The notes: generated from the letters alone by a model not told the origin. Counted from the first letter of the stretch, positions 516 through 38,599 are shown. The stretch: 64,000 bases of DNA from an uncultured Spirochaetales bacterium (GCA_964475005.1 CAYYUZ010000001.1:19780-83779), one strand, 5' to 3'. Numbers and translations are program-made.

Positions 516-517
516 GC

Positions 518-2969: not shown

Positions 2970-2977
2970 GAATTCTC

Positions 2978-4758: not shown

Positions 4759-5536
4759 AATCCAGTTCCTGTTTGAGGACCTTTTCGAGTTCTTCAGCGA
4801 GGTCCTCCATGATGATTTCTTCCAGACCGACAAGGTCCGGATCAGTCGCTCTCCGAGGCCGAGGAGCCGCGACCACAAGGTCACGCTTGATCCTTCCGGG
4901 AAGGGTGCCCATGACGACAACCCGATCCGAAAGTAGAAGCGCTTCGCGGATATTGTGGGTAACGAAGACGACAGTCCTTCCCGACTTGAGCCACAATTCC
5001 TCAAGGTCTTTCTGCAGAACGAACTTGGTTTGTTCATCGAGTGCGGCAAACGGCTCATCCATCAGCAGAATTTCCGGACTTATGACTAGTGCCCGGGCGA
5101 TGGCCGCGCGCTGTTTCATTCCCCCCGAGAGCTCGTGGGGAAAGCGGTCCGCGAACCGGCCCAGATGAACGGCTTGCAGTTGCTCTTGAGCCAGGGCCAC
5201 CCGATGCGATCGTTGAACGCCCCGTTGCTTCAGCCCAAAGGCGACGTTGTCGACAAGTGTCAGCCACGGAAACAGGGCAGGCTCCTGAAAGACCACGACC
5301 CTGTCGGGACCGGGACCGCCGACTTCCTGGCCGTCGATAAGAACAGAACCGGAGTCGGGCCGGTCAAACCCGGCCATGAGGTTGAGCAGAGTGCTCTTGC
5401 CACAACCAGACGGACCGACAAGGGAGACGAAAGTCCCCTTCTCGACCTCCAGGTCGAGATTTTCCAGAGCCAGGAACGGCTTGCGGCGGTTTTGGGAGAA
5501 AGACTTGCTGACACGGTCAACGGCAATTTGGGCCAC
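4691..5536 (-). CDS. ABC transporter ATP-binding protein (NitT/TauT family, SsuB/TauB-like)
   Basis: Walker A GPSGCGKST, signature LSGGMKQR, Walker B LLMDEP. Confidence 0.85.
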   Translation of the reverse strand: MAQIAVDRVSKSFSQNRRKPFLALENLDLEVEKGTFVSLVGPSGCGKSTLLNLMAGFDRPDSGSVLIDGQEVGGPGPDRVVVFQEPALFPWLTLVDNVAFGLKQRGVQRSHRVALAQEQLQAVHLGRFADRFPHELSGGMKQRAAIARALVISPEILLMDEPFAALDEQTKFVLQKDLEELWLKSGRTVVFVTHNIREALLLSDRVVVMGTLPGRIKRDLVVAAPRPRRATDPDLVGLEEIIMEDLAEELEKVLKQELDFEYHLAESRLPPSAGDSLGSGI

Positions 5537-5631
5537 GAGATCGATACTGTACTTAATCGCTCATATAAGTCAAGTATATCTTGCAACAAATGTTTCTTTG
5601 TCACAGGACAAGGTTAATTATCTAAGGTACC
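5537..5631. promoter_or_regulatory. AT-rich divergent control region between ssu/tau-like ATPase operon and ECF transporter operon
   Basis: 95-bp AT-rich gap in an otherwise GC-rich region between divergent starts. Contains TCATATAAGT and GTCAAGTATATC words that recur in other promoter gaps of the island (45707; 24165). Confidence 0.4.
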
Positions 5632-7293: not shown

Positions 7294-7333
7294 CAAATCG
7301 GTGTCTGCGGGCATCCGATCAAAGGAGGTTTCC

Positions 7334-8277
7334 ATGAGCAATCCGTCCCTGACCCCCAAGGTGAACAACCCTTGGGTCCAACCCCTGATCCCGCTCCTTG
7401 TGGTGGCGGCGGTCTCTATCGGTCTCTTGTATCTCGGTGGTGTTCTGGCCTACGCCCGGGGTGCCACCGACGACGCGGCTCTGCCCTTGACCCGCTGGGT
7501 CGGCGTTGTGGTTGCAGCGGTGGTCATCCTGTACTTCTTGTATGTCAGTCAGGCAGAAAAGGACGTCTGGGCGTTTGGGACGCGTCAGGTGGTCTACGCG
7601 GCTATCGGTGCGGCGTTGTACGGGGTTCTCTCGTGGCTCACCAATGTGGTCCAACTCCCTTCGATCAGCCTCGTAGCCCTCCGCCCGGCCATCGTCATCC
7701 CAGTCTTCTTCGGGGTGGCGTTCGGGCCCGTGGTCGGGTTCTTTGCGGGCTTCGTCGGAAATATCTTGGGTGACGCGCTCACCGGTTGGGGCGTGTACCC
7801 CCTGTGGGACGTCGGCAACGGCATTCTCGGGTTGGTGGCTGGTCTGGTGCTCGCGTTCAAGGACAGCCGGAGGGCTGTCAACGCGCTCACCATCGTCGTC
7901 GCCGTCGTCGCGATTGCGGCCTCGGTTCTCTTGTGGCTGAACGCCGGCTTTACTGTGAGCGACTTCAGCGGCAAGAAGAACGCCGTTGGGCCCTGTGGTG
8001 GCTTCCCCTTCTCGGGGGAGGCTTGGTCGTGGCCGCTCGTTTTGTCTTCCTCAAGGCTGCCGACCTGGCCGCGGCCGAACTCTGGGGCGCCTTTGGTATC
8101 CTGATTGGCATTGGGTTTGCCGCGTTCGGGGGCATCTTGCAGAACGGCACGACGCCCGGCGCGGCGCTTTTTGGCGAATTCGTGCCAGCGGCAGGATCCA
8201 ATCTGGTGAACTCGGTGATCCTGTTGCCCATTCTGCTGACCGCATGGAACGCCGCGCGGTCACGAACAGGCCGCTAA
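7334..8277 (+). CDS. ECF transporter S (substrate-capture) component-like integral membrane protein; reading frame switches near 7985 (apparent frameshift)
   Basis: AGGAGG RBS then ATG 7334. Highly hydrophobic multi-TM product in frame 1 to about 7985. Frame 1 then becomes non-membrane-like and stops at 8104, while frame 2 (ORF 7786..8277) continues as membrane-protein sequence (ALWWLPLLGGGLVVAARFVFL...) to just before the ecfT RBS and has no own start codon. Confidence 0.55.
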
Positions 8278-8303
8278 GGAGTGAAACGACCTGGAGAATC
8301 CGG

Positions 8304-9140
8304 ATGCTGGTGAGTTGGCCCTACCGAGAACGGGATACCTTCTATCAGAGGCTAGACCCCCGTTCCCGGATCCTTTTTTCGTTTCTGGGCATGCTCAGCC
8401 TGACCCTGTTTCAAGTCTGGGACCTGCGTATCCTGGCTATCTACGGGGCGGCGGGTGGGATTCAACTTCGGCTCTCGCGGGTCACCCTCCGAGAGAGCCG
8501 CACCCTGTGGTCCATCCTGTTGTTTGTCGCAGCGAGTCTGACCCTTCTGACCCTGGTAACCGGCAAGGGCGGCGGTGACTCGTTTGTCGACTCCCACCTT
8601 CTTTGGCAGTCTCCGTGGCTGACGCTGAGCGTGGAGAGGCTGACGTTTGCTGTGTCGCAGTTTGTTCGCATCGGTATCGTCGTGCTGTTGTTTGCGCCCC
8701 TGCCGTACACCCTCCACCCGGCCCGCTACGGGCTTGTCTTCCACAAGTTCGGCGTCGGCGACAAGTTTGCCGTGGCCACCGACTTGGCGTTCCGGTTTGT
8801 TCCCAACCTGGCCCAAGATTTTGAGACGACGATGGAAGCGCAGAAGGCCAGGGGGTACGAGTTGGACCGTGCCGGCGGCCTGTGGCGGGCCCTGCGAAAT
8901 CTGGCACCGCTTCTGGTGCCCGTGACGATCGGCACCATCTTGAAGGGGGAAGACGTCATCGACGCGCTCGACCTTCGCGCCTTTGGTTCGGGGCCTCGGA
9001 CCTGGTACCGTGAGCTACATTTCCGCGCCGTCGATTGGATCGTCAGTATCGTCGCTGTCGGTCAGTTTGTCACCCTGGGCTTGGCTGTCGGGCTCAACAC
9101 CGACGTAGGCCGACTCTGGGTTCCGCCATGGTTTCTTTGA
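8304..9140 (+). CDS. ecfT: ECF transporter transmembrane (T) component EcfT/CbiQ family
   Basis: CbiQ-like TM protein. ATG 8304 in frame with the long ORF; the upstream part of ORF 7986.. is an overlap with the S-component tail. Confidence 0.75.
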   Translation: MLVSWPYRERDTFYQRLDPRSRILFSFLGMLSLTLFQVWDLRILAIYGAAGGIQLRLSRVTLRESRTLWSILLFVAASLTLLTLVTGKGGGDSFVDSHLLWQSPWLTLSVERLTFAVSQFVRIGIVVLLFAPLPYTLHPARYGLVFHKFGVGDKFAVATDLAFRFVPNLAQDFETTMEAQKARGYELDRAGGLWRALRNLAPLLVPVTIGTILKGEDVIDALDLRAFGSGPRTWYRELHFRAVDWIVSIVAVGQFVTLGLAVGLNTDVGRLWVPPWFL

Positions 9141-11435
9141 GTTCTGAGGGGAGTCGATTTCTGTGGTTTCCGGAGGAGAATGGACCCTGACGGGGGGGAG
9201 TTCCCCTAGCCATTTTTCAATCTCGACCAGAACCAGCTGTCCGATGCTCCCTTGAGCGATGTTGGAACTTCCCTCGTCAAGGGTCAGAACGTTCGGGTTT
9301 CCGTGGCGGCAAAGCTTCAGGGAGTCGTCAGGGTCGAACCAGGCCCCGGTCGACAACTGGGCGATCCCCGCCCGAAGCTCGTCGCTGACCAGCAACCCCG
9401 CCAGACACGCGCCGCGATCGTTGTACACCCTCACCACGTCGCCGTTCGTCAGACCTCGCTGGGTCGCGTCTGCGGCGTTGAGCCGAAGCGGCTCCCTCCC
9501 GGCGATTTTCGAGGCCGCGCTGACCACGCCGAAATCAAGCTGGCTATGCAGGCGGGTAGAAGGTTGGTTGGCCACGAGAAGGACTGGGTACAGACGCGCT
9601 CGCGGAGAGTCTAGGGCCTCGCTCCGGGACCGCCAGATCGGGTGGCCCGGTTGCGTTGGATCCTTCCAGCCGGCAATGGTTGGCGAGGTGATTTCGATGA
9701 GACCCGAGCCGGTGGGGAGGGGAGAACGCACGGGATCAGCCACAAAATCAGCCAGCCAGGTGCTCGCGGGCCGTGTCGGCAGGGCCAGCTGCCCGTCGCT
9801 CCAGAAGGTATCGAAGGAGGGAACCACAGCTCCGAGGTTCCTGAGACTTTCCTCCAGTTCCCTGTACAGCGTTCTGAGCCATTGGTCGACCGACAAGCCG
9901 CCTGTGAACGCCGACTCGAGTCCAAACCTGGCCGCCAACCCGGCGAAAATTTGGTGGTCATCTCGGGCTTGGCCGAAAGGTTGCACCGCCTGGTGCATGG
10001 CGATGAGCCTGTCGTCGTTTCGGGCCGCTCCCAGGTCGTTGCGTTCCAGCGAAATTGTGGCGGGGAAGACAATATCGGCGTGCCGGGCGGACGAGGTCCA
10101 GTAGGGGTCCTGCACGATGACGGTATCGGGGCGGGTCCAGGCTTGCCGAAGACGGTTGAGGTCTTGATGATGGTGGAAAGGGTTGCCCCCGGCCCAGTAA
10201 ACCAAGCGGATATCGGGGTAGACGTAGCGGCCGCCGTCGTAAGGAAAGCTCTCTCCCGGATGCAGGAGCAGGTCACTGATGCGCGCCACAGGGATGAAGT
10301 CGGCTACCGGATTGGTTCCTTGGGGAAACGAAGGCAGTCTGACGGCAAGGGGGAGCCGCCCCAAATTCCCGAGTGTTCCCAGGGCAAACGCGAAGCCCTC
10401 CGCAGGGCCAAAGCGGCCCAAGAACGCGGCGACAACGACGGCCAGCCAAATGGGTTGCTCGCCGTCTTGGGCCCTCTGCACCGAGTTGGTGACCGTCAGC
10501 ACAGTGCGGTGAGAGGCCATGGCCCGTGCCAATTCGACGATGGTGTCGGCGGGGATTTCGGTGATTGCGGCGGCCCACGAGGCCGACTTCGACTGGCCGT
10601 CGGACTCCCCGGTCAGATAAGCGGCAAATTCGTCGAACCCCACGGTGTAGCGGTCAACAAAGCCTCGGTTGACGAGTCCTTCTACCAGCAGGGTGTGAGC
10701 CAGCGCTAAGAGAAACGCTGTGTCCGTGTTGGGCCGGATAGCCAGCCATTCGGCCTCGGGAAGGTCGTCGTGGATGGGGCTGACCGAGACCATCCTGGCT
10801 CCTCTGCGAACCGCCGCTTCAATCGCCTTTCCGCCGCGATGCCGGGAGACCCCGCCTACTCCGACCATCTGAGTACGGCGCGGCATGCCGCCGAAAGCCA
10901 CCAACAACTCGGTTTGTTCGGCAATACCGTCCCAGGTCACCGTGTCGGCCGAAAGTTTGGACTCGGGGGCGATGATCCGCCTGAGAATGACTTCTGCCGC
11001 TGCTGAACTGTAGGTGTCACGCGAAAAGGTGTAACCGCCGATCAAGTTCAGAAAACGGTGGAGCTGGCTTTGCGTGTGATGGAATCGGCCCGCGCTGGCC
11101 CAGCCGTACGAGCCTCCGAAGATCGCGGGGTTTCCGTGGGTTGTTCTGACCCGCTCCAGTTCACCCGCCGCCAGGTCGAGAGCCCTGTCCCACTCCACCG
11201 GAACAAAGGGTTGTTTTCCCCGCCGATCGCTCGAACCCGGTCCCTGATCCAGCCATCCCTGACGGATCATCGGCTGGACAATTCTCGTTGCATGCGCCGG
11301 TGCGTCGCCCATACTGCCCAGGATGACCGACGGTTCGGGGTCCTCGGGATCGGCCACGGCCCTGAGGCGACCGGACGGTCCCGAGAAATCGACAGAAAAA
11401 CTGCCCCAATGGGCCGAGTGCGTGCGAGCCTTCAT
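9015..11435 (-). CDS. molybdopterin (bis-MGD) S-/N-oxide reductase, DMSO-reductase family, BisC/TorZ-like, cytoplasmic
   Basis: 806 aa with N-terminal SAHWGSF (BisC-type start). No twin-arginine signal and no N-terminal Cys4 cluster. Mo-bisPGD family blocks throughout. The C-terminal about 55 aa are low-complexity and overlap convergent ecfT by 126 nt. Confidence 0.8.
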   Translation of the reverse strand: MKARTHSAHWGSFSVDFSGPSGRLRAVADPEDPEPSVILGSMGDAPAHATRIVQPMIRQGWLDQGPGSSDRRGKQPFVPVEWDRALDLAAGELERVRTTHGNPAIFGGSYGWASAGRFHHTQSQLHRFLNLIGGYTFSRDTYSSAAAEVILRRIIAPESKLSADTVTWDGIAEQTELLVAFGGMPRRTQMVGVGGVSRHRGGKAIEAAVRRGARMVSVSPIHDDLPEAEWLAIRPNTDTAFLLALAHTLLVEGLVNRGFVDRYTVGFDEFAAYLTGESDGQSKSASWAAAITEIPADTIVELARAMASHRTVLTVTNSVQRAQDGEQPIWLAVVVAAFLGRFGPAEGFAFALGTLGNLGRLPLAVRLPSFPQGTNPVADFIPVARISDLLLHPGESFPYDGGRYVYPDIRLVYWAGGNPFHHHQDLNRLRQAWTRPDTVIVQDPYWTSSARHADIVFPATISLERNDLGAARNDDRLIAMHQAVQPFGQARDDHQIFAGLAARFGLESAFTGGLSVDQWLRTLYRELEESLRNLGAVVPSFDTFWSDGQLALPTRPASTWLADFVADPVRSPLPTGSGLIEITSPTIAGWKDPTQPGHPIWRSRSEALDSPRARLYPVLLVANQPSTRLHSQLDFGVVSAASKIAGREPLRLNAADATQRGLTNGDVVRVYNDRGACLAGLLVSDELRAGIAQLSTGAWFDPDDSLKLCRHGNPNVLTLDEGSSNIAQGSIGQLVLVEIEKWLGELPPVRVHSPPETTEIDSPQNSKKPWRNPESAYVGVEPDSQAQGDKLTDSDDTDDPIDGAEM

Positions 11436-14496: not shown

Positions 14497-14622
14497 GGAA
14501 ACCTCCACGGGTGTGAAAACTTTACTCTACTGAGTTGATCGAGTTATATAACATGAAAAATATCATGTCAAGTTGAATAGTCGTGAATTGACAAGAGCCC
14601 TCAAAAGAGCGATCATGTCACC

Positions 14623-15072
14623 ATGAGTAACGTGGTGTTTCACCGAGCCCTAACGGGACAGCGTTGGGACGGCGTGGAGGTACTGGCCTACAAAGAGGCC
14701 GGGACGACCTTCCAGTCCGTGACTAGGCAAGTCCTGTTCGAGGGCGATCCGGCCCTTTGTGTCCAACTCAGATACTTCGAGGTGGGACCCGGCGGTCACA
14801 CGACGCTCGAACGCCACCAGCATGTTCATTTGGTATGGATAAGCCGTGGAAGAGGGAGGGTCTACGTGGGCGGAGAATTCTTCGAGCTTGCCAAGGGAGA
14901 TGTGCTTTCCATTCCAACGCTGACCTGGCATCAATTTCGGGCACCGCTGAATTCCCCCCTAGGGTTTCACTGTCTGGTGGCAGCCGACCGTGACAAACCC
15001 TCGCTACCCAGCGATCAGGACTGGCGGGAGTTGACACAGAGCCGGGAGGCTGCCGCCTTTCTAAGGAGATGA
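14623..15072 (+). CDS. cupin-domain protein
   Basis: Cupin motif region (GGHTTLERHQHVHLVWISRGRGRVYVGGE) with two His-containing beta-barrel motifs. Confidence 0.6.
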   Translation: MSNVVFHRALTGQRWDGVEVLAYKEAGTTFQSVTRQVLFEGDPALCVQLRYFEVGPGGHTTLERHQHVHLVWISRGRGRVYVGGEFFELAKGDVLSIPTLTWHQFRAPLNSPLGFHCLVAADRDKPSLPSDQDWRELTQSREAAAFLRR

Positions 15073-15074
15073 CC

Positions 15075-15254
15075 ATGTTACCCCCCGTGACGGTTTCGGT
15101 TCGGATTCCCGGGGCGCTCTGGCGCCGGTGGATTCGCGTCGAGCCCAAAGTCGGCATTGACCTGCAGTCGCTGATTCCCGCCCTGCTCGAGCTCTATCTG
15201 GACCGGGAAGAGCGAAGCCGCGATGGACTGACCGGTATCGAGTATCAAATATGA
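15075..15254 (+). CDS. small hypothetical protein (59 aa)
   Basis: AAGGAG RBS 7 nt upstream of ATG 15075. Start overlaps the cupin stop; conserved operon position immediately before metY. Confidence 0.35.
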   Translation: MLPPVTVSVRIPGALWRRWIRVEPKVGIDLQSLIPALLELYLDREERSRDGLTGIEYQI

Positions 15255-17101: not shown

Positions 17102-17533
17102 GTGAAGCTTTCCACAAGATCCCTCTACGGCCTGCGCCTTTTGTACCAAGTGGCTCGAAACTACGACAATGGCCCACTCCAACTCAAGGAAGTGGCGACA
17201 CGCGAATCGATTTCCGAAAAGTACTTGGGGCAGATCGTCCTGTTGTTGCGTTCTTCGGGAATCCTGGTGTCGGTTCGTGGGAATCAGGGCGGCTATCTTT
17301 TAGCACGCAAACCCTCCAGCATCACCGTTCTCCAGGTGGTCGAGGTTCTTGAGGGAGATTTCCTGGAGAGGCTCGATGACGATTCTCCCATCACCGATCC
17401 CAGCCAGGCCGCGACGCGAGAGGTCTGGCGGCGGCTCGGCCGTTCGGTCCGCGACGTGCTCGGCGCGATCACCCTCGAGGACCTTCTGAGCCTCCCCCAA
17501 AACGACGCCAGTTTTCTCGACTTCGCTATCTAG
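17102..17533 (+). CDS. Rrf2-family transcriptional regulator (IscR/CymR-like)
   Basis: N-terminal MKLSTRSLYGLRLL...LKEVA...ISEKYLGQIV wHTH typical of Rrf2. No C-terminal 3-Cys cluster is evident (CymR-like, not IscR-like). Confidence 0.8.
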   Translation: MKLSTRSLYGLRLLYQVARNYDNGPLQLKEVATRESISEKYLGQIVLLLRSSGILVSVRGNQGGYLLARKPSSITVLQVVEVLEGDFLERLDDDSPITDPSQAATREVWRRLGRSVRDVLGAITLEDLLSLPQNDASFLDFAI

Positions 17534-17566: not shown

Positions 17567-17730
17567 AGAAGAGAGACCGGATAACCGGAAGTCAATTCAA
17601 ATTGACCGGATCAGAAGAGTCGAGGCAAGAGCCAGAAATTCAAGCAGAACTTCTCAACGCTTCGCCGTCTGACTTGACCACCTTTCTCGAAATCCGGTTG
17701 ATCCGGCCCATCCTGTTATCCGGTCTCTTC
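17567..17730. repeat. MITE-like inverted-repeat element, copy A (about 165 bp)
   Basis: Left end GAGAGACCGGATAACCGGA (17571-17589) and right end GTTATCCGGTCTC (17715-17727) are reverse complements. Internal CCGGAT/ATCCGG hexamer repeats (TTGACCGGATCAGAAGAG ... ATCCGGTTGATCCGGCC). Second copy with identical ends at 30964-31120. Confidence 0.7.
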
Positions 17731-18606
17731 CTAAATCCGCGCTGCCGGGGAGGCCGAAATCCCCGTCTCCATGGCAACCAGCACGTCGGCCCATTTGGCG
17801 GCCCAGTCCCGAAGCTCCTTCGATTCCAGCGGCGCCGGAATTTTCGATTCCGTGTGACTGGCAATTTTGTTCGCCAGGTTGAAATACACTTGGGCCTGGG
17901 GAGATTCCGGGTAGGCCTCAATGGTCGTCTTGCCCTGCAGTTCGGCCTGGGTGACGGTGACCGATCTAGGAACGTACTCCACCACCTGGGTCTGGGTCTT
18001 TTGCACGAAGTCGTCGATAATGTCGCGCGGGTAGCCCGGCGCCATCGAGTTGGCAATGACGCCGCCCAACAGTGCGCCTCCGGACCGAGAGTATTTGTGG
18101 ATACCCTTGAACAGGTTGTTGGCGGCGTAGATGGCCATGAAATCGGCCGACGAGACTGTGAAGACGTGCTCAGCGATTCCTTCTCGGATAGGCACCGCGA
18201 AGCCTCCGCACACGACGTCACCAAGAACGTCGTAGATCACGACGTCGAGGTCGAGGTCCTCGAACACCTTCTGTTGTTTGAACAGCTGAACGCTGGTGAT
18301 GATTCCTCGTCCCGCGCAGCCCACACCAGGTGCCGGTCCGCCGGCCTCGACGCAGTACACGCCGCCGAAACCTTCGAAGATCACGGAGCGGGCTTTCAGG
18401 TGGGCGTTCTCCTGTAGGGAATCAAGAATGGTGGGAATGTAGTCGCCGCCGCGAAGGGTGTTTGTCGAGTCGGCCTTCGGGTCGCAGCCGAACTGCATGA
18501 CTTTGTAGCCGAGTTTGGCCAGCGCGGCGCTGAGGTTGCTCGTCGTCGTGGACTTGCCGATGCCGCCCTTTCCGTAGATGGCGATTTGCTGAATTTTCTT
18601 AGACAC
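17731..18606 (-). CDS. nitrogenase-like reductase Fe protein, NifH/BchL/CfbC/MarH family (MarH-like)
   Basis: Walker [15 protein letters not shown]. Both [4Fe-4S] ligand cysteines in canonical context ([19 protein letters not shown]; [14 protein letters not shown]). GGAG RBS 8 nt before GTG 18606; start overlaps the nifX-like stop by 8 nt (GTGTCTAA). Confidence 0.85.
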
Positions 18607-18973
18607 GGGGAGTACTCCTTGGGATAAATACGTTTCGATAAAGAGGCGAAGCAGCGACGCGGGCCAAGGCCGGAACGACGGGGTCTTCGGTGGAGAGAAA
18701 GGCGATTCCGCAGGCGGCCAGGCCTTGAACGACGGCCGGCCCCGCGGCGGCGGCCAGAACGAAGCGGCAATCGGAGAACCGTGCGAGGGCCGTTCCCAGA
18801 CCCTCGCCGTGACCTTCCTCGCCGCAGAGCGCGGGCACGGTTCGTTCGCCTTCCCACGCGAAACTTCGGCCATTCCAGAGATAGAGTTCAAACCGAGAGG
18901 CACGGCCGAAATGCCGATCGACGGTTTGGCCACCCTGGCTGGCGACGGCGGCTCGGATGAGGTTTTCAGCCAT
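18599..18973 (-). CDS. NifX/NafY/NifB-C-terminal-domain family protein (FeMo-cofactor-precursor-binding-like)
   Basis: [24 protein letters not shown] matches the Nitro_FeMo-Co domain start (AVAS..G..V..HFG....F.IY). ATG 18973 overlaps the nifB-like stop by 8 nt (ATGGCTGA). Confidence 0.75.
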
Positions 18974-19850
18974 GACTGAAGGTCTCCGCCACAGCCTCAC
19001 CGCCGTAAAGTTCCGCCGAAAGGTCAAGCTGCCCGGGAATGCCGCAGGCGTCGGCGCGGCAATGCCGGCAATGCCGGAACACCGCTAGGTGCTTTTCCGC
19101 GTCTCGGCGGGCGCGGTCGAGGGTCTCTTCGGTGGGAGGGTCCCACGCGGCGAAACGATGCTGAGGAATCAGGGGGATGATGTTAAAAAGCCCGGCTCCC
19201 TCAGCCGCCACCGTCCGGGCAGTCTCTTCCACGTGGTGATCGTTGATACCAGGAATCAGAACCAGATTCACCTTGATCGTGAGGCCGTGCGCGGCGGCTT
19301 CTCGAATGCCGGCTAGTTGCTGCCGAATCAGGACCTTGGCCCCCGCTTGTCCCTTCAAGACCTGGCCATGAAACCTCACACGGTCGACGATTTGGGCCAC
19401 GATGAGAGGGTCGACGCCGTTGACGGTCACGGTCAGTGTTCCCAGTCCCAACTGCAACAGCTCGTCAAGCCGCTCTTGCAGCAGGAGGCCGTTGGTGCTC
19501 AGGCACTTCACCAAATCAGGAAAGCAGGCCTGCACGGCGCGAAAGGTTTTCAGAGCGTGGGGCGTCGAAAGTGTGTCGCCGGGACCGGCGATGCCAACTA
19601 CAGAGATCTCGGGGCAGAGTTCCAAGGCCCGCGCAACAACTTCGGGGGCTTCTTCGGGTGTCACCAGGCGTCCGGTCACTCCGGGGCGGATCTCACTCTT
19701 GTTGAACTCGCGTCGGCAGAAGCCGCAACTAATGTTGCAGGAAGGGCTGACGGGGAGGTGGACCCTGCCACGGGTCAGGTGGGCCGCCGGGCTGAAACAG
19801 GGGTGGAGACGAGCCGGGGAAGAGGCCGAAAAAAGCGGTGGTGACTCCAT
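18966..19850 (-). CDS. NifB-like radical SAM protein (radical-SAM domain only; NifX domain is the separate downstream ORF)
   Basis: [32 protein letters not shown] matches the NifB signature HPCY..A....R.H.PVAP.CNI.C.YC.R, including the CxxxCxxC radical-SAM cluster. AAGGAGG RBS before ATG 19850. Confidence 0.85.
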
Positions 19851-19964
19851 GTTGCCTCCTTGACTACCGAAAAACTAGCATTTGCAATATTTTATGTCAA
19901 TCAACATAGTTAACATTAATAGACTAAATAACTAGCGTTTAAGTAGTATTACTAGGAGGACGTC
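19851..19964. promoter_or_regulatory. AT-rich divergent control region (nifB-like operon <-> metY paralog 2) with palindrome TAGTATTACTA
   Basis: 114-bp AT-rich gap. Perfect 11-bp palindrome at 19943-19953. TTGCAATATTTTATGTCAATCAAC contains -35-like TTGCAA/TGTCAA words. A related AGTAATACT palindrome lies in the nifD-like/metY3 gap. Confidence 0.45.
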
Positions 19965-21275
19965 ATGTCTGTACCCAAGCTCCAGTTTGATACCCTGAAA
20001 GTCAGGGCCGGCTACGACCCCAAAGATCACCAGAACGCGATCGCCGTTCCCATCTACCAGACCGCCTCGTTTGACCTCGGGGATACCGCCCGCGTCGACC
20101 GGTTACTGTCGTTTCAGGAGGCCGGCTGGCTGTACACCCGGATCGGCAATCCTACTGTCGATGTTTTGGAGCGTCGGGTCGCCGCCCTCGATGGCGGCGC
20201 CGCGGCCATCGCGGTCGCCTCGGGCATGGCAGCCATCTCGTACACTTTACTGAATCTGGCCGAAGGGGGAGGAAGGATCTTGACCACCCCTAGGCTCTAT
20301 GGAGGCACCTTTGACGCCTTCCAGAAGGTCCTCGCGCCGCTGGGTATTGGAGTCGATCTCGTCGAAGACTCCGACAAACCCGAATCGTTCCGCAAGGCGC
20401 TCAAGTCAAATACCAAAGCCATCTTGATCGAGTCGATCTCTAACCCCAACGCCACCGTGCTCGACATCGAGGCCATTGCCAAGGTGGCCCACGACTTCGG
20501 CATTCCCCTGGTGGTCGACAATACCTTCGCGACGCCCTATTTGTTCGACGCGTTTGGCCACGGCGCCGACCTTGTTGTTTATTCGGCGACGAAGGCCCTC
20601 AACGGCCACGGCAACACCATCGGTGGCGTGATCGTCGAAAGTGGGAAGTTCAACTATGCCAACGGAAAGTTCCCGCAATTCCAGAAGCCCACCTACCTGC
20701 TTCGCGACCGACCGACCAACGTCGAGCGCAGCTTTCTCGAGGCCTTTCCGGACTTTCCCCTCACGGTGCGCATCCGTCTGAACTATCTGGCCTACCTCGG
20801 TGCTGCGCTTAGTCCTTTCGATGCCTTTCTGATCCTTCAAGGCATCGAGACGCTTTCCGAGAGGGTGGGCAAGCAGGTGGCGAACGCCGAGAGAGTGATC
20901 AAGTTCCTGGAAACTCACCCGCAGGTCGCCTGGGTGAAGCATCCGGCGGCCAAGGGCAATCCCTACGCGGAACTTGCCAAGAAGTACCTTCCCCAAGGTG
21001 CAGGGGGCATCTTCACGTTTGGATTCCGGGGAAGCGACGCTCAGTACAACAAGTTCATCGATTCGCTCAAGGTCTTCAGTTTCCACGCCAATGTCGGGGA
21101 TGCCCGCTCGCTGGTCATCAATTCCCCCAAGACCACGCACGGCGAGCTTCGCCCCGCCGAACAACTGACCGCCGATATCCCGCCGGAAACGATTCGGCTG
21201 TCGATTGGTATCGAGGACCCCCGCGACCTGATCGCCGACCTGCGCCAGGCGTTCAAGGCGGCGCTGAAGGCCTGA
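19965..21275 (+). CDS. metY: O-acetylhomoserine sulfhydrylase-family PLP enzyme (paralog 2)
   Basis: 436 aa; PLP-lysine motif SATKALNGHG; MetY-family blocks throughout. Sits between and opposite to the two nitrogenase-like operons. Confidence 0.8.
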   Translation: MSVPKLQFDTLKVRAGYDPKDHQNAIAVPIYQTASFDLGDTARVDRLLSFQEAGWLYTRIGNPTVDVLERRVAALDGGAAAIAVASGMAAISYTLLNLAEGGGRILTTPRLYGGTFDAFQKVLAPLGIGVDLVEDSDKPESFRKALKSNTKAILIESISNPNATVLDIEAIAKVAHDFGIPLVVDNTFATPYLFDAFGHGADLVVYSATKALNGHGNTIGGVIVESGKFNYANGKFPQFQKPTYLLRDRPTNVERSFLEAFPDFPLTVRIRLNYLAYLGAALSPFDAFLILQGIETLSERVGKQVANAERVIKFLETHPQVAWVKHPAAKGNPYAELAKKYLPQGAGGIFTFGFRGSDAQYNKFIDSLKVFSFHANVGDARSLVINSPKTTHGELRPAEQLTADIPPETIRLSIGIEDPRDLIADLRQAFKAALKA

Positions 21276-21337
21276 GCCGGCGAGCGAAGCGATGCCCGTG
21301 TCGTTCTAGGCGAAGCCCAATCGGCGAGATCCGAGCC

Positions 21338-22651
21338 TTAGTTAAATTGTTGCAGCACCCAGGTATAGATGTCTTCCAGCAGTTTCAGCCCGCCATGGTA
21401 GCCGGCGTAGGTGCCGTGGAGGACCAGCCTTTCCTTCATGGGCACCGACACCGCCAGAAAGTTGCCCTCCAACTCTTGTGCGAGTTTCTTTTCAAAAATG
21501 CTCCCGAGAATCAAGGGTGGGCCGAACCAGTCGGTGTCGCGGATGGCCTGGTGAATGAGATGGCCGTCTGTCGAAAAGACGACCGGAGCCTCGATCCCGT
21601 ACTGAAACTCCTTGAAATAGCCGACGATGCGGTTCCGATGCTCCTCGGGAGTGGCGTCGGTGATGTACTGGGTTTCGGGAACGAGTCCGAAATCGTTGAC
21701 CAAGAACTTGCTGTAGGCCAATGCGTCCGCGGCGTTTGTGACGGTCGAGAAACGGCGGCTCATGGTCCGGTTTTCGAGGAACACGTCGCTGGTCCTCTCG
21801 ATGTGAAAGTAGTATTCCTTTTCGTGGCGGTCGATGACGCGCTCGACGAGTGTCGGTTCGAGCTCGGCAAATTTCCCTACCGTCCTGAGGAAGCGGCTCG
21901 TCTCGAAGGCTCCTACCGGCAAGTTCGGAAGGTGCAGGTAGGGCGTTCCAAAGGCTTCCTCGAGATGAAGAACGTTGCCAAGTCCCACCCAAGGTGAAAC
22001 GAGCAAGTTGAACTCGGCGTTTGGCACACGGTTGAGATTCTCAATGCCACGGTACTCGCCGAAAATCGCGTTGGGGATAAGGCCAACCTCTTCGAGCAAG
22101 GACTCCAGCACGCGGAAGTTGCCGACCCAGAACGGATCGTAGGACGGGATCGGTCCCCAAACGTTGACCAATCCCTTGACCAGCGGTCCCTTGCCGCGGG
22201 GAACCAGATACTGGTCGATCAGCGCATCGACCACCCACTGGTGGCCTTCGAGGTTGTTAGCCTTGAAGCCAGGGGTTTCCACAGCCACGACAGGTTTTCC
22301 CGCGTTCTGAAATTCTTGCACGACCTTTTTGATATCGTCTCCCACAATTTCGGTGGTGCAGCCCGATAGCACCACGTAGAGGTCTCCGTCGACGACCTTG
22401 AGCGCGTTGGAAATGGTTTCGCGCAGCCGGCCTTCTCCGCCGAATACGGTTTCTCGCTCACCGACATTGGTGCAGGGGTAGATCTGCGGGGACAGGTAGC
22501 CGGAGTCGCCGTTGCTTCCCGCAATGCCCCCCGCGAGCTTGGCCGCGCACCCCGGCCCGGCGTGAAGCACGGGAACTCCGCGGTAGAGACCTTGCACGGT
22601 CTGCATGGCGCCCAAGGCGCAGACGTAACGAGGTTGGTCGAGGATCTTCAT
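21338..22651 (-). CDS. nitrogenase-like reductase component-1 beta-type subunit, NifK/NifN/MarK-like
   Basis: Nitrogenase component-1-type oxidoreductase fold. P-cluster-type cysteine contexts (YVCALGA; AGPGCAAK; VVLSGCTTEIVGDDI = CxxxxIGDD motif). ATGA start/stop overlap with the upstream D-like gene. Confidence 0.8.
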   Translation of the reverse strand: MKILDQPRYVCALGAMQTVQGLYRGVPVLHAGPGCAAKLAGGIAGSNGDSGYLSPQIYPCTNVGERETVFGGEGRLRETISNALKVVDGDLYVVLSGCTTEIVGDDIKKVVQEFQNAGKPVVAVETPGFKANNLEGHQWVVDALIDQYLVPRGKGPLVKGLVNVWGPIPSYDPFWVGNFRVLESLLEEVGLIPNAIFGEYRGIENLNRVPNAEFNLLVSPWVGLGNVLHLEEAFGTPYLHLPNLPVGAFETSRFLRTVGKFAELEPTLVERVIDRHEKEYYFHIERTSDVFLENRTMSRRFSTVTNAADALAYSKFLVNDFGLVPETQYITDATPEEHRNRIVGYFKEFQYGIEAPVVFSTDGHLIHQAIRDTDWFGPPLILGSIFEKKLAQELEGNFLAVSVPMKERLVLHGTYAGYHGGLKLLEDIYTWVLQQFN

Positions 22652-24120
22652 GCGGGTTCTCCGGCTTCAAGAAAGTTGTGGTGGGGCTGGGCAAACCACC
22701 AGCCGGTGTAGGGCAGTTTTACGCGGCTGGCGAGGTTCTTGGTGAAACTGCGGTTGGTCACGACGTCGTGGACGGCTGACGCGAACTTGACCAAGCCGTG
22801 GTAGCCGAAGATGGCGTATTCGTCAAAGACGCACAGTGAAGGGATGCCGAGCTTGGTCGCCCAGACCGTCGAGCCGGTGTGGCGGCTAAAGAAGATGTCG
22901 GGCTTCACTGTGTTGAGGATGTTGAGCAGTTCGAAGTTTTGCAGGTCGTTGACCGACAGGGGAAAGTCGTTGGGGGAGTGATCGAGCAGGTACTGGAAGG
23001 ATTCCGGCCTGCGGCCGTCTTCGTACTGCTTGTCGAAGTGCCAAGCGGCTGAGTGAACGATTTCGAGGCCCAGTTCCTGCAATACTCTTGTCGTGTTGAA
23101 GTTGAAGCCTGGGCCCATGCCGACAACGGCGCGTAGACCAGTAAGCTTGGCCCGGAATGCTTCGATCTTGGGCTGCCAGGTCTCCTTTTCCTTTTTCAAG
23201 TACGCGTCGGCGATGTCATCCTTGCCCAAAACCTTGGCCAAGCCCCGGACCCAACTTTCGAAACCCGCCATGCCGTGGGGTTGGAGCGACTTGATGTAGG
23301 GCACCCCGTACTGTTCTTCCAGTCCATGGCCCAGATAGGTTCCCAACGTGGCGCAAGTGCTGACCGTGGCGACCGACTCAGACAATTGGGACAACTGTTC
23401 AATGGTAGTGTTCGACAAGAGGAACAAAGGTTCGACCCCGAAAAGAGCGAACAACGCGGTGATCTCCTTGCGGGCGCTGCCAAAGAAGTTGATCACGTTG
23501 ACGACGTCGCGCTTGACCTTTGGGGGCTGAACGATGGTGCTCAGAATGGCGTGAAAGGCCGCGTCAAAGCCGCTGGCCCAGATCTGCGTCTTGAACCCCT
23601 CGCAAAAGACGGGAGCGACGGGTATCCCCAGTTCCTCCGAGGTCTCGCGGGCGATGCTGGCGAGGTCCTCGCCGATGACGCCACTAACGCACGAGGCGCC
23701 GATGAAGATGGCGCGCGGGTCATAGCGCCTGTGGGTTTCTCTCACCACGTCGCGAAGGTTCTCGGTGGCCCCAAACACGGTGTCGGCCTCGTTCATGTCG
23801 GTGCTCACGTACCCCGAGCGGGAGTTGTCGAGGCCCAATTTCGCGGCCAACTGATCTTTGGAGTTGCTGAGGCTCATGGCGGTCACCGCGCAGCCAGAGG
23901 GGGAGTGGTGGACCACGGCAGCGTCGGTCACAAAGCCCAGCTGACCGAGAGCGCAGGCGGCGTTGCACAGGCTTGCCTGGCTGAAGCATCGCTTGCGGTC
24001 GCCGAAGCCCCCGCCACCGCAAGCCTGACCGAGCCCTTGAAGCGTTCCCTCGTAGCCCGTAATCGAGCCGAGGCGGTTTTCTCGGGTTCCCGTCTCTGTT
24101 CCTTTGCCGTAATCACTCAT
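22648..24120 (-). CDS. nitrogenase-like reductase component-1 alpha-type subunit, NifD/NifE/MarD-like
   Basis: FIGASCVSGVIGEDL (CxxxxIG[DE]D P-cluster motif), FCEGF, and a Cys in the cofactor-ligand region (VSTCATLGTY). AAGGAG RBS 7 nt before ATG 24120. Confidence 0.8.
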   Translation of the reverse strand: MSDYGKGTETGTRENRLGSITGYEGTLQGLGQACGGGGFGDRKRCFSQASLCNAACALGQLGFVTDAAVVHHSPSGCAVTAMSLSNSKDQLAAKLGLDNSRSGYVSTDMNEADTVFGATENLRDVVRETHRRYDPRAIFIGASCVSGVIGEDLASIARETSEELGIPVAPVFCEGFKTQIWASGFDAAFHAILSTIVQPPKVKRDVVNVINFFGSARKEITALFALFGVEPLFLLSNTTIEQLSQLSESVATVSTCATLGTYLGHGLEEQYGVPYIKSLQPHGMAGFESWVRGLAKVLGKDDIADAYLKKEKETWQPKIEAFRAKLTGLRAVVGMGPGFNFNTTRVLQELGLEIVHSAAWHFDKQYEDGRRPESFQYLLDHSPNDFPLSVNDLQNFELLNILNTVKPDIFFSRHTGSTVWATKLGIPSLCVFDEYAIFGYHGLVKFASAVHDVVTNRSFTKNLASRVKLPYTGWWFAQPHHNFLEAGEPA

Positions 24121-24289
24121 CGTGATCTCCTTGTAGGGGTACTTTAGCGAGGTTAACTTTGGTTAGTCAAGTAATACTACTAACATAATAGTGAAAGATT
24201 TTCAAAAACATAACTGAGTCTATTGACAAACATAAACAAACACTACTATCACTAGTCTGTAACTAGTGTTTATGATCAAGGAGTGAGTG
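24121..24289. promoter_or_regulatory. AT-rich divergent control region (nifD/K-like operon <-> metY paralog 3 operon) with palindrome AGTAATACT
   Basis: 169-bp AT-rich gap. AGTAATACTACT at 24169-24180 (odd palindrome AGTA-A-TACT). GTCAAGTAATAC word shared with 5561. Twin ACTAGT palindromes at 24251-24272. Confidence 0.45.
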
Positions 24290-25594
24290 ATGAGCGAGAG
24301 GAAGTTGGCCTTCGATACCCTTCAGGTCCACGCCGGGCAGGTTCCTGACCCGACGACGGGGGCCCGGGCTGTCCCCATCTATCAGACGACCTCGTTCGTC
24401 TACAAGAACTTCGACCACGCCATCGCGCTCAGTACCGTGGCCGAGTTCGGTTTCACCTACACGCGGGTCGTCAATCCCACGGCCGATGTCTTGGAACAGC
24501 GGATCGCGGCCCTGGAAGGCGGCTCCGGCGCTTTGGCGTTGGCCTCCGGTTCGGCGGCAACCACCTACGCCATCCTCAATCTTGCCGGTACCGGCGACCA
24601 CATCGTTTCCGCGCAGACCCTCTACGGCGGCACCTACAACCTGTTCGCCAACACTCTCCCCCGCTACGGGATTACGACCACCTTCGTCGATCCCGACGAA
24701 CCTGAGAATTTTCGGAAGGCCATCCGCATCAACACCAAGGCGGTGTTCATCGAGTCCATCGGCAACCCCGGAATCAACATCATCGACATCGAAAAGGTCG
24801 CCAAGATCGCCCACGAAAACGGTGTCCCTCTCATCGTCGACAACACCTTCGGCACGCCGTACCTGATCCGGCCGTTTGAATACGGTGCCGACGTCATTGT
24901 CCACTCGGCCACTAAGTACATCGGCGGCCACGGAACCACCATTGGAGGCCTTCTGGTCGAAGGGGGAAAATTCGACTGGTCCAAGAGCGGCAAATTCCCC
25001 GGTTTCACCGAAGTGGACAAGAGTTACGGCTTCAGCCACTGGGAGCGCTTCGGCAACTACAACGGCGCGAACATCGCGTTCATCATCAAGGCCCGTTTGC
25101 AACTGCTGCGCGACATCGGCGCGGCGCTGTCCCCTCAGAACGCCTTCCTCCTCCTCCAAGGGCTGGAAAGCTTGTCGCTTCGGGTTCAAAAGCATGTTTC
25201 CAATGCTCAGAAGATCGCCGAGCACCTGGCCAAACATCCGCAGGTCGAGTGGATCGATTACCCTGGGCTGCCAACCAACAAGTACCACGCCGTCGCCAAG
25301 AAGTACTTTCCCCGGGGCGTGGGAGCTATCTTCGCCTTCGGGATTAAGGGCGGGTTTCCCGCGGCCAAGAAATTCATCGAGAGCCTGACGATCTTCTCTT
25401 TTTTGGCCAACGTCGCCGATGCCAAGAGCCTTGTCGTTCATCCGGCTACCGTCACCCACGGTCAGCTCAACGAGCAGCAGCAACGCGAGGCGGGGGTCAA
25501 ACCCGAGCAGATCCGCCTGTCCATCGGTATCGAAGACGCCGAGGACCTGCTCTGGGACCTCGACCAGGCTTTTGAGAAGGCCAAGAAACTCTGA
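24290..25594 (+). CDS. metY: O-acetylhomoserine sulfhydrylase-family PLP enzyme (paralog 3)
   Basis: PLP-lysine motif [19 protein letters not shown] 8 nt before ATG 24290; the listed start at 24287 is a GTG. First gene of a long rightward operon. Confidence 0.85.
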
Positions 25595-30963: not shown

Positions 30964-31120
30964 GGACGAGAGACCGGATAACCGGAGGGAAACCCAGATG
31001 AACCGGATCAGAGAGGGAAAAGGCAGTGACCATCGGGATTGTTCTGTCTTTCTCTCAACCGAATTCTCTGGCGCCCCAACATCCGGTTGATCCGGCCTTC
31101 ACGGTTATCCGGTCTCCTTT
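30964..31120. repeat. MITE-like inverted-repeat element, copy B (about 157 bp)
   Basis: GAGAGACCGGATAACCGGA at 30968-30986 and CGGTTATCCGGTCTC at 31102-31116. Internal GAACCGGATCAGAGAGG and ATCCGGTTGATCCGGCC shared with copy A; central about 70 bp diverged. Fills the convergent gap between the CGL and lipoprotein stops. Confidence 0.7.
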
Positions 31121-31386: not shown

Positions 31387-31473
31387 GAAACTCTCCTTGA
31401 GGATTCTATTATGAGTAATGCTATCAACTAAATAGTATATGAAATCAGCAGAGTTAATCAAGAAGGAGATTCC

Positions 31474-32940
31474 ATGAAAATTGCAGAAAATGTGTTGGCT
31501 TTGATCGGCCGGACACCGTTGGTTCGCTTGCACAAGTTGATTCCTCCCGGCGGAGCCGATCTGTTAGTGAAGCTGGAGTCGATGAACCCCTATTCGAGCG
31601 TCAAGGATAGGCTGGGCGTTGCCCTGATCGAGGCAGCCGAGCGCGACGGAACTCTGACGCCGGGGGCCACGTTGATCGAGCCGACCAGCGGGAACACCGG
31701 CATCGCGCTTGCCTTTGCCGCGATAGTCAAAGGCTACAAACTCATCCTGGTTATGCCCGAGACCGTCAGCTCCGAGCGCCGCAAGATCGTTGAGGCCCTG
31801 GGAGCTGAAGTCGAGTTGGTCGACGCGGCCGACGGCATGGGGGCGTCCGTCCGCCGAGCCGAGGAATTACGGTCCTCGATTCCTGGTGCTGTCATCCTGG
31901 GACAGTTCGACAATCCGGCGAACCCGGCCGTCCACCGGTCCACAACGGCTCAGGAGATCTGGGACGACACCGACGGCACCGTTGACATTTTTGTCGCCGG
32001 GGTCGGAACCGGCGGAACCGTCACCGGCGTGGGACAAAGGCTCAAAGAACTCAAGCCCAGCATCCAGATCATCGCGGTGGAACCGTGGAAATCGTCGGTC
32101 CTTTCCGGCGGCGTGGCGGCTCCCCACAAGATTCAGGGCATCGGGGCGGGGTTTGTTCCCAGGGTGTACGACCCCGCCGTGGTTGACGAGGTCATCACGG
32201 TCAAGGAGGAGGACGCCGGCTACTTCGCTCGAAGGCTGGCTCGGGAAGAAGGCCTTCTGACGGGGGTCTCTTCGGGGGCCGCGCTCTGGGCCGCGTGGCA
32301 GGTCGCCGCGAGAGGCCAAAATGCTGGAAAGCGGATCGTCGTTCTGTTGCCTGACTCGGGAGAGCGCTACCTTTCCACCTGGCTCTACGACTATATCGAC
32401 ATCCGGAAGGTCGGGATCTCGCGGTCTGAAGCCCCTGTCGGTGCTCTCGATCCGGTGGTTCCTCGAACTGATTATGTTCCCACGGCGCCCCTGTTTGACA
32501 GTGATTCGCAGGCGGTCCGTCAGTCGGTTCACTACTTTCAGAACGGCCTCTACTGCAGCGAGGCCATCCTCAAGGCCTTCAACGACCACTACCACCTGGG
32601 CCTCGACGAGAAAGTGCTGAAGATCGCCACGGGTTTCGGTGCCGGTCTTGGCGCCGCCAAGTGCGCTTGCGGATCGGTTACCGGCGCGGCGATGGTGTTG
32701 TCGGCGGTGGCAGGACGAACTCTGTCGAGCGAGTCCGAAGAGGTCGTGTTTCAGACAACGGCGCTCCTTCACGACCGCTTCAAGGCCAAGTATCGGGCCA
32801 TTTGCTGCCGGGTCCTAACGCGAAACGTCGAGTGGGGCTCGGCGGCGCACAAGACCTACTGCGAGCGCTTGGTGTGGGATGCGGCGGCGCTGGCGGACCA
32901 ATTGCTGAAAGAGCATCTGGCAACCCGATTCAATACTTGA
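31474..32940 (+). CDS. cysteine synthase A-type (O-acetylserine sulfhydrylase) fused to C-terminal C_GCAxxG_C_C-family putative redox domain
   Basis: Residues 1-310 are a complete CysK ([33 protein letters not shown]). Residues about 330-488 contain [12 protein letters not shown] ... [18 protein letters not shown] ... CCRVL ... YCER, matching the Cys pattern that names the C_GCAxxG_C_C family. Confidence 0.75.
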
Positions 32941-32997
32941 CTAATACTATCGGATTGGTAATATTAGAAAGAAAATTGATTTTCCAAGGAGTCCGAC

Positions 32998-36953: not shown

Positions 36954-37053
36954 GGAGCTCTCCTCTTAATGACTATCGAAGTAGTAGGACATATATACTA
37001 AAATGTCAATCATCTATATTGACATTAGAAACAATGTTGAATACGGTGTGCCT
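36954..37053 (+). promoter_or_regulatory. AT-rich promoter region of metNIQ-like operon
   Basis: TATATTGACA (-35-like TTGACA) at about 37013-37022; the same 10-mer occurs upstream of the porin gene (about 42193-42202). TAGTA-N9-TACTA inverted repeat at about 36981-36999. Confidence 0.4.
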
Positions 37054-38498: not shown

Positions 38499-38599
38499 CC
38501 GGCGTTGTTGTCGGGCGCGGCCGCTCTGATCCGCCCGCCCACCAGGGGTTCTGGTGTTCTAAAGACTACTAAAACCATGTTTTCAATAGGAGATAACTC

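Follow-up and report, generated by a model that had tools for sequence, protein, structure and literature searches.

A stretch of 64,000 nucleotides of DNA from an uncultured Spirochaetales bacterium (GCA_964475005.1 CAYYUZ010000001.1:19780-83779; hereafter the window, with positions counted from its first letter) carries a nitrogenase-like enzyme system whose genes form two separate units, marB-nifX-marH and marD-marK, each lying opposite its own paralogue of metY, a gene of the O-acetylhomoserine sulfhydrylase family. Here we describe an element of about 24-27 bp that is present in both of the divergent gaps and recurs upstream of the surrounding sulfur genes, and we weigh which protein may bind it.

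In the first unit (17731-19850) a marB-like radical-SAM gene of the NifB type (18966-19850, minus strand; Radical_SAM and nifB model, 2.5e-74), a NifX-like open reading frame (ORF; 18599-18973, minus strand; PF02579, 42.9 bits) and a marH-like NifH gene (17731-18606, minus strand; Fer4_NifH 5.3e-98) run divergently from metY-2 (19965-21275, plus strand). In the second unit (21338-24120) a marD-like gene (22648-24120, minus strand) and a marK-like gene (21338-22651, minus strand) are divergent from metY-3 (24287-25594, plus strand), which is the first gene of a plus-strand unit that also has ABC (ATP-binding cassette) transporter, CBS and CGL genes. The control regions between the units extend over 19851-19964 (GC 0.33) and 24121-24286 (GC 0.34), as compared to a GC of ~0.55-0.65 in the coding sequence flanking both gaps. 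A preliminary description of this DNA had given the same divergent layout, which was borne out apart from the NifX-like gene that had been missed; it had also recognized both gaps as AT-rich. The NifH ORF, mechanically listed with 400 aa, is really about 291 aa long with a start near 18606. An apparent 359-bp spacer between marB and marH, considered as a structured RNA, gave a fold z-score of 0.37, and this spacer is the NifX-like ORF.

The marD-like and marK-like products matched the structures of MarDK from Rhodospirillum rubrum (9D9U/9FMG) with E-values of 5e-96 and 2e-102, respectively, as compared to ~1e-38 or weaker (D) and 1e-15 or weaker (K) for the best nitrogenase or other nitrogenase-like chains. 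Since both subunits are far nearer to the MarDK structures than to nitrogenases, the enzymes are, judged by sequence, MarBHDK homologues with a NifH-like reductase, a NifB-like radical-SAM maturase and a NifX-like ORF. Methylthio-alkane reductases are a recently recognized route by which anaerobes convert volatile organosulfur compounds to methanethiol, releasing ethylene or methane. C-S cleavage to methanethiol is predicted here, and the three adjoining metY genes would fit a route from methanethiol to methionine.

ORF layout and profile searches place these genes in a sulfur-acquisition island, which takes up ~1-50 kb of the window. Its sulfur enzymes are encoded by three metY paralogues, CBS, CGL and two cysK-type genes of the PALP family (31474-32940 and 41230-42144), and its importers are metNIQ, a cystine-type ABC system, three NMT1/sulfonate-type ABC systems and an ECF transporter. 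Besides the nitrogenase-like system, TauD- and 2-oxoglutarate (2OG)-type oxygenases, a flavin monooxygenase (FMO) and a rhodanese are also encoded in the island.

A shared element in the control regions of the island

The two mar gaps have more in common than expected by chance, and this goes beyond the palindrome noted previously. The exact 12-mer AGTAATACTACT is common to both gaps on opposite strands (24170-24181, plus strand; reverse complement at 19942-19953; P=0.004 in shuffles of the two gaps), and four blocks of at least 13/16 identity were found as compared to 0.21 expected from dinucleotide shuffles of the gaps, although the palindromic block is counted twice, so that there are really three. 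The maximum pairwise 16-mer similarity between gaps was inside the shuffle range, and significance was reached only for the number of shared blocks and only for the two mar gaps. The preliminary description had singled out an AGTA-N-TACT palindrome in each gap as a candidate operator. Both palindromes exist, but each of them is displaced by one nucleotide from where it had been placed: TAGTA-T-TACTA (TAGTATTACTA) is at 19944-19954 (not 19943-19953), just 5' of the GGAGG ribosome-binding site of metY-2, and the 12-mer AGTAATACTACT is at 24170-24181 (not 24169-24180), with AGTA-A-TACT (AGTAATACT, 24170-24178) within it. In the whole window AGTA-N-TACT occurs three times (3972, 19945 and 24170) as compared to 0.03 expected from whole-window shuffles, a null that is too lenient for AT-rich DNA. 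The third copy, AGTAGTACT at 3972-3980, falls in the first codons of an NMT1_2 binding-protein gene, has no support from the position weight matrix (PWM) described below and is probably a chance match.

A specific motif with two-fold symmetry is placed in the gaps of the island. We searched 12 AT-rich gaps upstream of island operons by expectation maximization (EM; zero or one site per sequence, both strands) and obtained a single element of ~27 nt in 11 of them, A-N2-CTACT-N-A-N3-GAT-[AC]-[GA]-T...AGT. De novo discovery, which had been put forward as a check of the palindrome, thus returned a shared element, but one that is longer than, and different from, AGTA-N-TACT. The aligned sites share A(-2), C1 T2 A3 C4 T5, A7, G11 A12 T13, [A/C]14, [G/A]15 and T16, followed by a weak ...AGT... 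at 20-22, and the information content is ~19 bits. At width 20 the EM output was non-palindromic, ttATaCTACTAAatCGATAg, and its log-likelihood was 86.2 as compared to 55.8 +/- 2.8 in dinucleotide-shuffled sets (z=10.8), while a palindrome-constrained search at width 24 gave z=8.0. When each gap was held out from training, the same site was recovered at P<=0.024 in 10 of the 11 gaps, and the metQ site was weak (P=0.10). The symmetry is partial and was seen in a 24-bp register (CTACT-N14-AGTAG), where 74 of 156 pairs were complementary as compared to 45.9 +/- 5.5 (P<0.0002); off-register controls were negative.

Scanning the whole window with the PWM returned the trained sites together with two that had not been used for training, at 1974-2000 (24.9 bits, the second-highest score of all) and 7263-7289 (14.8 bits), whereas nothing in the rest of the 64 kb scored above 8.6 bits and no match of at least 14 bits was found in 40 block-shuffled windows. 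The AT-rich gaps outside the island, in the non-sulfur, prophage-like part of the window, had no motif site, and within the window the long element is specific to the island. With 11 of 12 gaps, z=10.8 and two untrained matches, the idea that the island operons have a common cis element was sound.

At least 13 copies were counted, the 11 trained and the two untrained sites, in control regions at ~1.9-46 kb, and we compared them with promoters predicted by a simple sigma-70-type scoring, which is heuristic. In the marB/metY-2 gap, site S4 (ATACTACTTAAACGCTAGTTATTTAGT, 19923-19949, minus strand; 20.2 bits, leave-one-out 13.3 bits, P=0.005) spans the spacer, the -10 box (TAGCGT) and the start of the predicted metY-2 promoter and is located at ~-71 from the predicted marB start; the palindrome TAGTATTACTA overlaps its left arm and flank. 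In the marD/metY-3 gap, site S5 (ATACTACTAACATAATAGTGAAAGATT, 24174-24200, plus strand; 21.3 bits, leave-one-out 12.9 bits, P=0.004) abuts the marD -35 box (TTGACT, 24170-24165); relative to the starts of marD and metY-3 it lies at ~-53 and ~-72, respectively. A weak second site in the same gap (24243-24269, minus strand; 7.7 bits) lies over the predicted metY-3 -10 box and start. Two further features of these gaps were observed. The block TAACTAG[C/T]GTTTA[A/T]G is found at 19929-19943 and 24260-24274 in the same orientation, ~30-36 nt 5' of the start codon of the respective metY gene (metY-2 and metY-3, with proteins only ~49% identical); in the first gap this block is the centre of S4 and the predicted -10 box. 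In the metY-3 leader a perfect palindrome, CACTAGT-N5-ACTAGTG (24250-24268, plus strand), followed by TTTATGATCA and flagged as terminator-like, coincides with the weak second site.

The best site of all is S11 (45707-45733, plus strand; 27.6 bits, leave-one-out 23.3 bits, P<0.001), a near-perfect dyad, CTACTAAAAC-GATC-ATATAAGTAG, covering the -10 box and start of the promoter of a sulfonate ABC/TauD operon. Near the other end of the island, the untrained S0 (ATTTTACTAAATCGATCGTATTACTCA, 1974-2000, minus strand; P<0.002) lies over the -10 box and start of an internal promoter of an NMT1-type binding-protein gene, and S1 (2023-2049, plus strand) lies next to the -35 box of the same promoter and overlaps it. 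S2 (5546-5572, plus strand; P<0.001) extends from the -35 to the -10 box of a sulfonate-type ABC operon promoter, with an ECF transporter operon divergent from it, and the second untrained site, Sx (7263-7289, minus strand; P<0.002), lies over a predicted internal promoter 5' of the ECF S-component gene. S3 (14524-14550, plus strand; P=0.002) is found in the gap between a periplasmic binding-protein gene and an operon of a cupin, a small ORF (sORF), metY1, a CoA-binding protein and an Rrf2-family regulator, where it overlaps the -10 box and start of a minus-strand promoter. Of the sites around the cysteine and methionine genes, S6 (31412-31438, minus strand; P=0.009) lies between a small lipoprotein gene and a cysK-GCAxxG fusion gene, S7 (32938-32964, minus strand; P=0.004) covers the -35 to -10 region of a predicted 2OG-oxygenase/OsmC/FMO promoter and S8 (36964-36990, minus strand; P=0.024) lies between a CxxC protein/SDR operon and metN. 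The weakest site in cross-validation, S9 (38563-38589, plus strand; P=0.10), is a 24-bp dyad, CTACTAAAAC-CATG-TTTTCAATAG, that overlaps the metQ ribosome-binding site, and S10 (42177-42203, plus strand; P=0.002) abuts a TTGACA box 5' of an outer-membrane-protein-like gene and amino-acid ABC operon.

Some of the genes next to these sites deserve a comment. For two ORFs the mechanically assigned start is probably too early: at 970-2019 (minus strand) the lipoprotein signal of the binding protein begins MTARLL (~1956), and a start there leaves a gap of ~95 bp holding two motif sites, and at 7211-8104 (plus strand) the ECF S-component likely starts near 7334. The gene at 42281-43375 (plus strand), first of an operon with an amino-acid ABC transporter and with a motif site upstream, encodes a 364-aa protein with a signal peptide and no Pfam match. 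Its C-terminal ...YTYKF is typical of outer-membrane beta-barrels, which suggests a diderm host.

Words related to the palindrome had also been reported upstream of other island operons. All of them exist in the window, but some lie 4-15 nt away from the positions reported, and most turned out to be fragments of the longer sites. The word GAGTAATAC at 1975 is the right arm of the site at 1974-2000, GAGTAATGC at 31413 and ATAGTATAT at 31432 are opposite ends of the site at 31412-31438, and the TAGTA of TAGTA-N9-TACTA at 36982 is the CTACT arm of the site at 36964-36990. Both copies of TCATATAAGT, at 5561 and 45722, are inside the right halves of the sites at 5546-5572 and 45707-45733, and GTCAAGTATA at 5569 is also part of a longer element. 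TATATTGACA, at 37015 and 42197, is an extended TTGACA -35 box, and the site at 42177-42203 ends with the first T of the 42197 copy. At 24166 lie GTCAAGTAATA and GTCAAGTA, the latter being partly the reverse complement of the marD -35 box.

A candidate regulator and its mode of control

Among the island ORFs that we scanned against Pfam, a single transcription factor was assigned to a family, namely an Rrf2-family regulator of 143 aa with no cysteine (17102-17533, plus strand). It is encoded by the last gene of the cupin-sORF-metY1-CoA-binding operon, the divergent control region of which carries S3 (14524-14550). The protein scored 110.8 bits with PF02082 (cut-off 30) and 108.1 bits with TIGR00738 (cut-off 73.3), its best named profile model was CymR, and its best PDB matches were 4CIC and then CymR from Bacillus subtilis, 2Y75 (E 9e-25, second best). 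The IscR, RirA and NsrR models were far under their own cut-offs, and the three cysteine ligands of an Fe-S cluster are missing. As the protein has no cysteine, an Fe-S cluster or a thiol switch is excluded, and a ligand or a partner enzyme would be expected, as with CysK-CymR; any such ligand or partner as the signal sensed is speculative. CymR needs a complex with CysK for DNA binding and responds to O-acetylserine. The dyad of the island element has the length of Rrf2-type operators (~23-29 bp), although its symmetry is only partial. By its family, its operon site and the context of its homologues, the adjacent Rrf2 protein, named earlier as the likely regulator of the island, is the best available candidate, but that it binds the element is something we infer from this context and from homologous loci.

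These loci came from contigs L001-L055 (the first 452 kb fetched) and later ones including L056, L058 and L061. Rrf2 homologues with 45-52% identity have the same recognition helix, ISEKYLGQI. In L049-L051 the homologue is followed by a Cys/Met pyridoxal-phosphate (PLP) enzyme, and the only non-self matches of at least 11 bits that the window-trained PWM gave in L001-L055 adjoin this homologue, at the same 18.0-bit place in all three contigs. In L058 the homologue is divergent from a NifX/nitrogenase-like D-K/metNIQ/DUF2325 operon, with a Cys/Met PLP enzyme next to it, and a 14.7-bit match is found at the orthologous place 5' of DUF4395. An independent motif search in the gaps of the Rrf2 homologues gave TACT...(T/G)ATAG and TACT-N14-AGTA-type dyads, with TATA and not GAT in the centre. 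Few cases are available, and their support for a link between Rrf2 and the element is circumstantial. In the spirochaete-like contigs L058 and L056, where the Rrf2 homologue stands beside nitrogenase-like D/K, metNIQ and DUF2325 genes, we also observed repeated CTATAG-N10-CTATAG and CTA-N9-TAG dyads (L058 7540-7689, 2850-2958 and 10133-10278; L056 9917-10000), one of them just 3' of the Rrf2 gene's own -10 box, an arrangement that suggests autoregulation.

Phylogenetic footprinting, for which L024, L023, L019, L020 and L061 were the only usable relatives, had a mixed outcome; searches of genome and metagenome collections gave no MarD of more than 75% identity, and the gene order at the nearest ones is different. 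In L019, where Rrf2 is 90% identical, CTACTnA..GA is kept at the metN-gap position orthologous to 36964-36990. L061 has the cupin-sORF-metY1-CoA-binding unit (metY1 94% identical), and in its 19 kb there is no Rrf2 gene and no motif match of at least 6 bits, the orthologous gap included. The part of L061 that lies 5' of this unit (1-9500) holds methylthioribose/methylthioadenosine salvage genes, encoding a RuBisCO-like protein, IF-2B/MtnA-like and APH/MtnK-like proteins and an ABC transporter; no mar genes were found within the 19 kb. No motif was found at the Rrf2 homologues beside Mrp/ApbC-type ATPases (L052, L054 and L055), which are probably a different orthologous group.

As for the mode of control, 9-10 of the 13 sites overlap the -35 to +15 region of a promoter predicted by the simple scoring. 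With the majority of sites lying over predicted core promoters, the element is best read as the operator of a repressor, and we infer this overlap, and hence repression, from weak promoter predictions. Overall, repression would be the more likely mode, with activation being compatible with the arrangement at the mar promoters.

Taken together, we propose that the operator of ~24-27 bp in both gaps, which recurs across the sulfur island, is likely bound by the CymR-like Rrf2 protein, mainly as a repressor, and we put the probability of this at roughly 55%. One operator copy would serve each mar/metY gap and further copies the control regions across the island, each being occupied by a dimer of the cysteine-free protein (17102-17533), which would act mainly as a repressor under sulfur-replete conditions. 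The mar and Cys/Met targets would be marB-nifX-marH, marDK, the three metY paralogues, CBS/CGL and the cysK-type genes, and the targets among importers and oxygenases would be the methionine, cystine and sulfonate-type importers and the TauD-type oxygenases. To see in this set a regulon for sulfur status is a sensible reading.

Several observations weigh against this proposal. The Rrf2 protein is not an equivalog of CymR, as it scored 112.9 bits with the model NF047409, which has a cut-off of 195. The CymR box of B. subtilis is TAAWNCN2ANTWNAN3ATMGGAATTW, to which the motif has no resemblance, and when up to three mismatches were allowed the sole match to this box in the window was at 53957, inside a gene outside the island, with none in the island. 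The motif has a degenerate right half, with an exact TACT-N14-AGTA only once, at 45711. At the homologous loci Rrf2 is only 45-50% identical and the centre of the motif is TATA as compared to GAT, and 5' of the 84%-identical metY-2 in L024 the motif was not recovered. In a stricter promoter scan only the marD promoter passed, none was found in the marB/metY-2 gap and the counts were not above those in shuffles. The strong sites at both mar promoters are located upstream (~-53 and ~-71), which fits activation as well as repression. Finally, the regulators examined are those within 64 kb of the genome.

The last two points lead to the alternative that survives best, although we consider it unlikely, namely that the operator is genuine and its binder is encoded outside the window, be it a sulfur regulator of the LysR type (for example SalR or CysB) or another global factor, with Rrf2 controlling other genes or a subset of these. 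In R. rubrum the expression of Mar needs the LysR-type SalR (PMC13474568). The positions of the strong mar-promoter sites are typical for an activator, and our view is confined to 64 kb of the genome. However, there is no LysR-type gene among the island ORFs scanned, and motif-like dyads adjoin Rrf2 homologues in unrelated contigs. The usual LysR box is T-N11-A, and a 24-bp dyad with its arms 14 bp apart is unlike it.

Even less probable is that the element is bound by the product of the small ORF at 15069-15254 (plus strand; 59-61 aa), a possible MetJ-like ribbon-helix-helix protein co-transcribed with metY-1 and Rrf2. This ORF is located between the cupin gene and metY-1, overlaps the cupin stop codon, is conserved in six relatives with 72-85% identity and lies directly upstream of Rrf2 in L019. 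A strand-helix-helix shape is predicted for the product, the structure model of which has an extended N-terminus and two helices (predicted local distance difference test score, pLDDT, 70.8), and the fold matches, non-significant, are mostly ribbon-helix-helix proteins (ParD, AmrZ, Arc, CopG and NikR). On the other hand, every fold match had E > 0.7 and no match was found in Pfam or to PDB sequences. L061 keeps the ORF (81% identity) with no motif match of at least 6 bits in its 19 kb, including the orthologous gap, which is a weak argument against the ORF product as the binder.

That the AGTA-N-TACT palindrome of 9-11 bp is itself the operator common to the two mar/metY gaps is very improbable. 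It is present in both gaps, where it is part of the shared 12-mer (P=0.004), and AGTANTACT is rare in the window. However, it is found at only two of the 13 sites (19923-19949 and 24174-24200) and is absent from the other 11, and it is not conserved 5' of the 84%-identical metY-2 orthologue in L024, where unrelated sequence has taken its place while the neighbouring promoter blocks ATGTCAATCnAnATAGTTnACA and ACTAGCGTTT, which flank it as -35/-10 blocks, are kept. The sequence ACTAGCGTTT belongs to the TAACTAG[C/T]GTTTA[A/T]G block of the first gap. A short palindromic model of width 12 barely exceeded the shuffles (z=2.0), and the palindrome is too short for an Rrf2 dimer, the operators of which are 23-29 bp (PMC9338935). 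Both mar-gap sites read gtaata-CTACT..., AGTA-N-TACT occupying their positions -7 to +2, and the palindrome belongs to the flank of the mar-linked sites only and is not the unit of recognition. A mere likeness of promoter architecture or AT-rich composition, with no operator at all, can be given just as slight a chance, as TTGACA-type boxes do recur in the gaps and the maximum pairwise 16-mer similarity is inside the shuffle range, but the motif is distinct from the -35/-10 boxes, varies in position relative to them and occurs in either orientation, holds up in dinucleotide shuffles, leave-one-out tests and untrained matches and has no copy in the AT-rich gaps beyond the island.

With binding by the Rrf2 protein as the preferred reading, one may ask whether the arrangement extends beyond this window. 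Possibly, though we lean towards doubt, a distinct, cluster-less Rrf2 subfamily (SEKYLGQI) could respond to sulfur limitation and control nitrogenase-like C-S-cleaving systems, with the Met/Cys salvage linked to them, in several non-proteobacterial lineages, acting through TACT-N14-AGTA-type dyads, replacing the LysR-type SalR circuit of Rhodospirillum and sensing via a metabolite or a partner enzyme (candidates being MetY or a CysK-type protein from the same operons). In the papers that could be searched, we found no link between Rrf2/CymR and Mar or nitrogenase-like sulfur enzymes. To our knowledge, a single proteobacterium, with SalR and MarS, is the only organism in which the regulation of Mar is known. 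Our result is a conventional repressor-operator prediction and implies no new kind of mechanism. For an uncultured lineage, the 13-site operator model defines a regulon that can be put to a direct test and indicates the transporters and enzymes that are probably expressed along with Mar, and the PWM can be used to find such islands in metagenomes.

Other features of the window

Directly after the island, ~50000-64000 is a prophage- or mobile-element-like block with genes for a PD-(D/E)XK nuclease, RadC, RecT, SSB, WYL/WCX, Mu Gam-like and DnaB-like proteins. At gathering thresholds Rfam had no match anywhere in the 64-kb window, hence no known riboswitch or other RNA element was found in the gaps. 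Two copies of an element of ~150 bp were observed at 17573-17727 and 30970-31116, each between convergent genes; their interiors have diverged, while the terminal inverted repeats are conserved (GAGACCGGATAACCGGA...ACCGGATCAGA and ATCCGGTTGATCCGGCC...GTTATCCGGTCTC). This element may be a repeat of the miniature inverted-repeat transposable element type or a bidirectional terminator.

Comparison with known systems

Among the closest known systems is CymR, a member of the Rrf2 family that serves B. subtilis and Staphylococcus aureus as master repressor of sulfur and cysteine metabolism. Like the window protein it has an Rrf2 fold without an Fe-S cluster, and likewise its targets are sulfur uptake and Cys/Met genes, with operators that overlap promoters, as predicted for the Rrf2 protein of the window. 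The recognition helices are SEHYLEQL in CymR and SEKYLGQI in the window protein. In contrast, the thiol switch of S. aureus CymR is impossible in a protein with no cysteine, the host of the window appears to be diderm and the putative targets include Mar.

Other Rrf2 proteins bind dyads of ~23-29 bp (23 bp for NsrR, 29 bp for IscR), with specific arms and a centre with few base contacts (PMC9338935). The motif of the window, a 24-bp dyad with significant symmetry, has a similar size and layout of arms and loose centre as the operators of NsrR, IscR and RsrR, although its sequence is unrelated, its halves are unequal, the left being by far the stronger, and sensing by an Fe-S cluster is impossible.

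With respect to the enzyme, marBHDK of R. rubrum is controlled by SalR (LysR type) and MarS (PadR type), with the same enzyme system and an expected response to sulfur limitation (PMC13474568). The regulator family would be another one here, as neither a LysR nor a PadR gene was seen among the island genes, and the motif of the window ties mar to the whole scavenging island. In the Mar2 locus of Rhodopseudomonas palustris, marKD2 is found with metY/metC and marHB2 with a NifX homologue (bioRxiv 10.64898/2026.08.20.746119). The mar genes of the window are likewise divided, D/K lying beside metY and B/H being accompanied by a NifX-like gene, but the window differs in that each of its units is divergent from its own metY paralogue, with an Rrf2 gene alongside.

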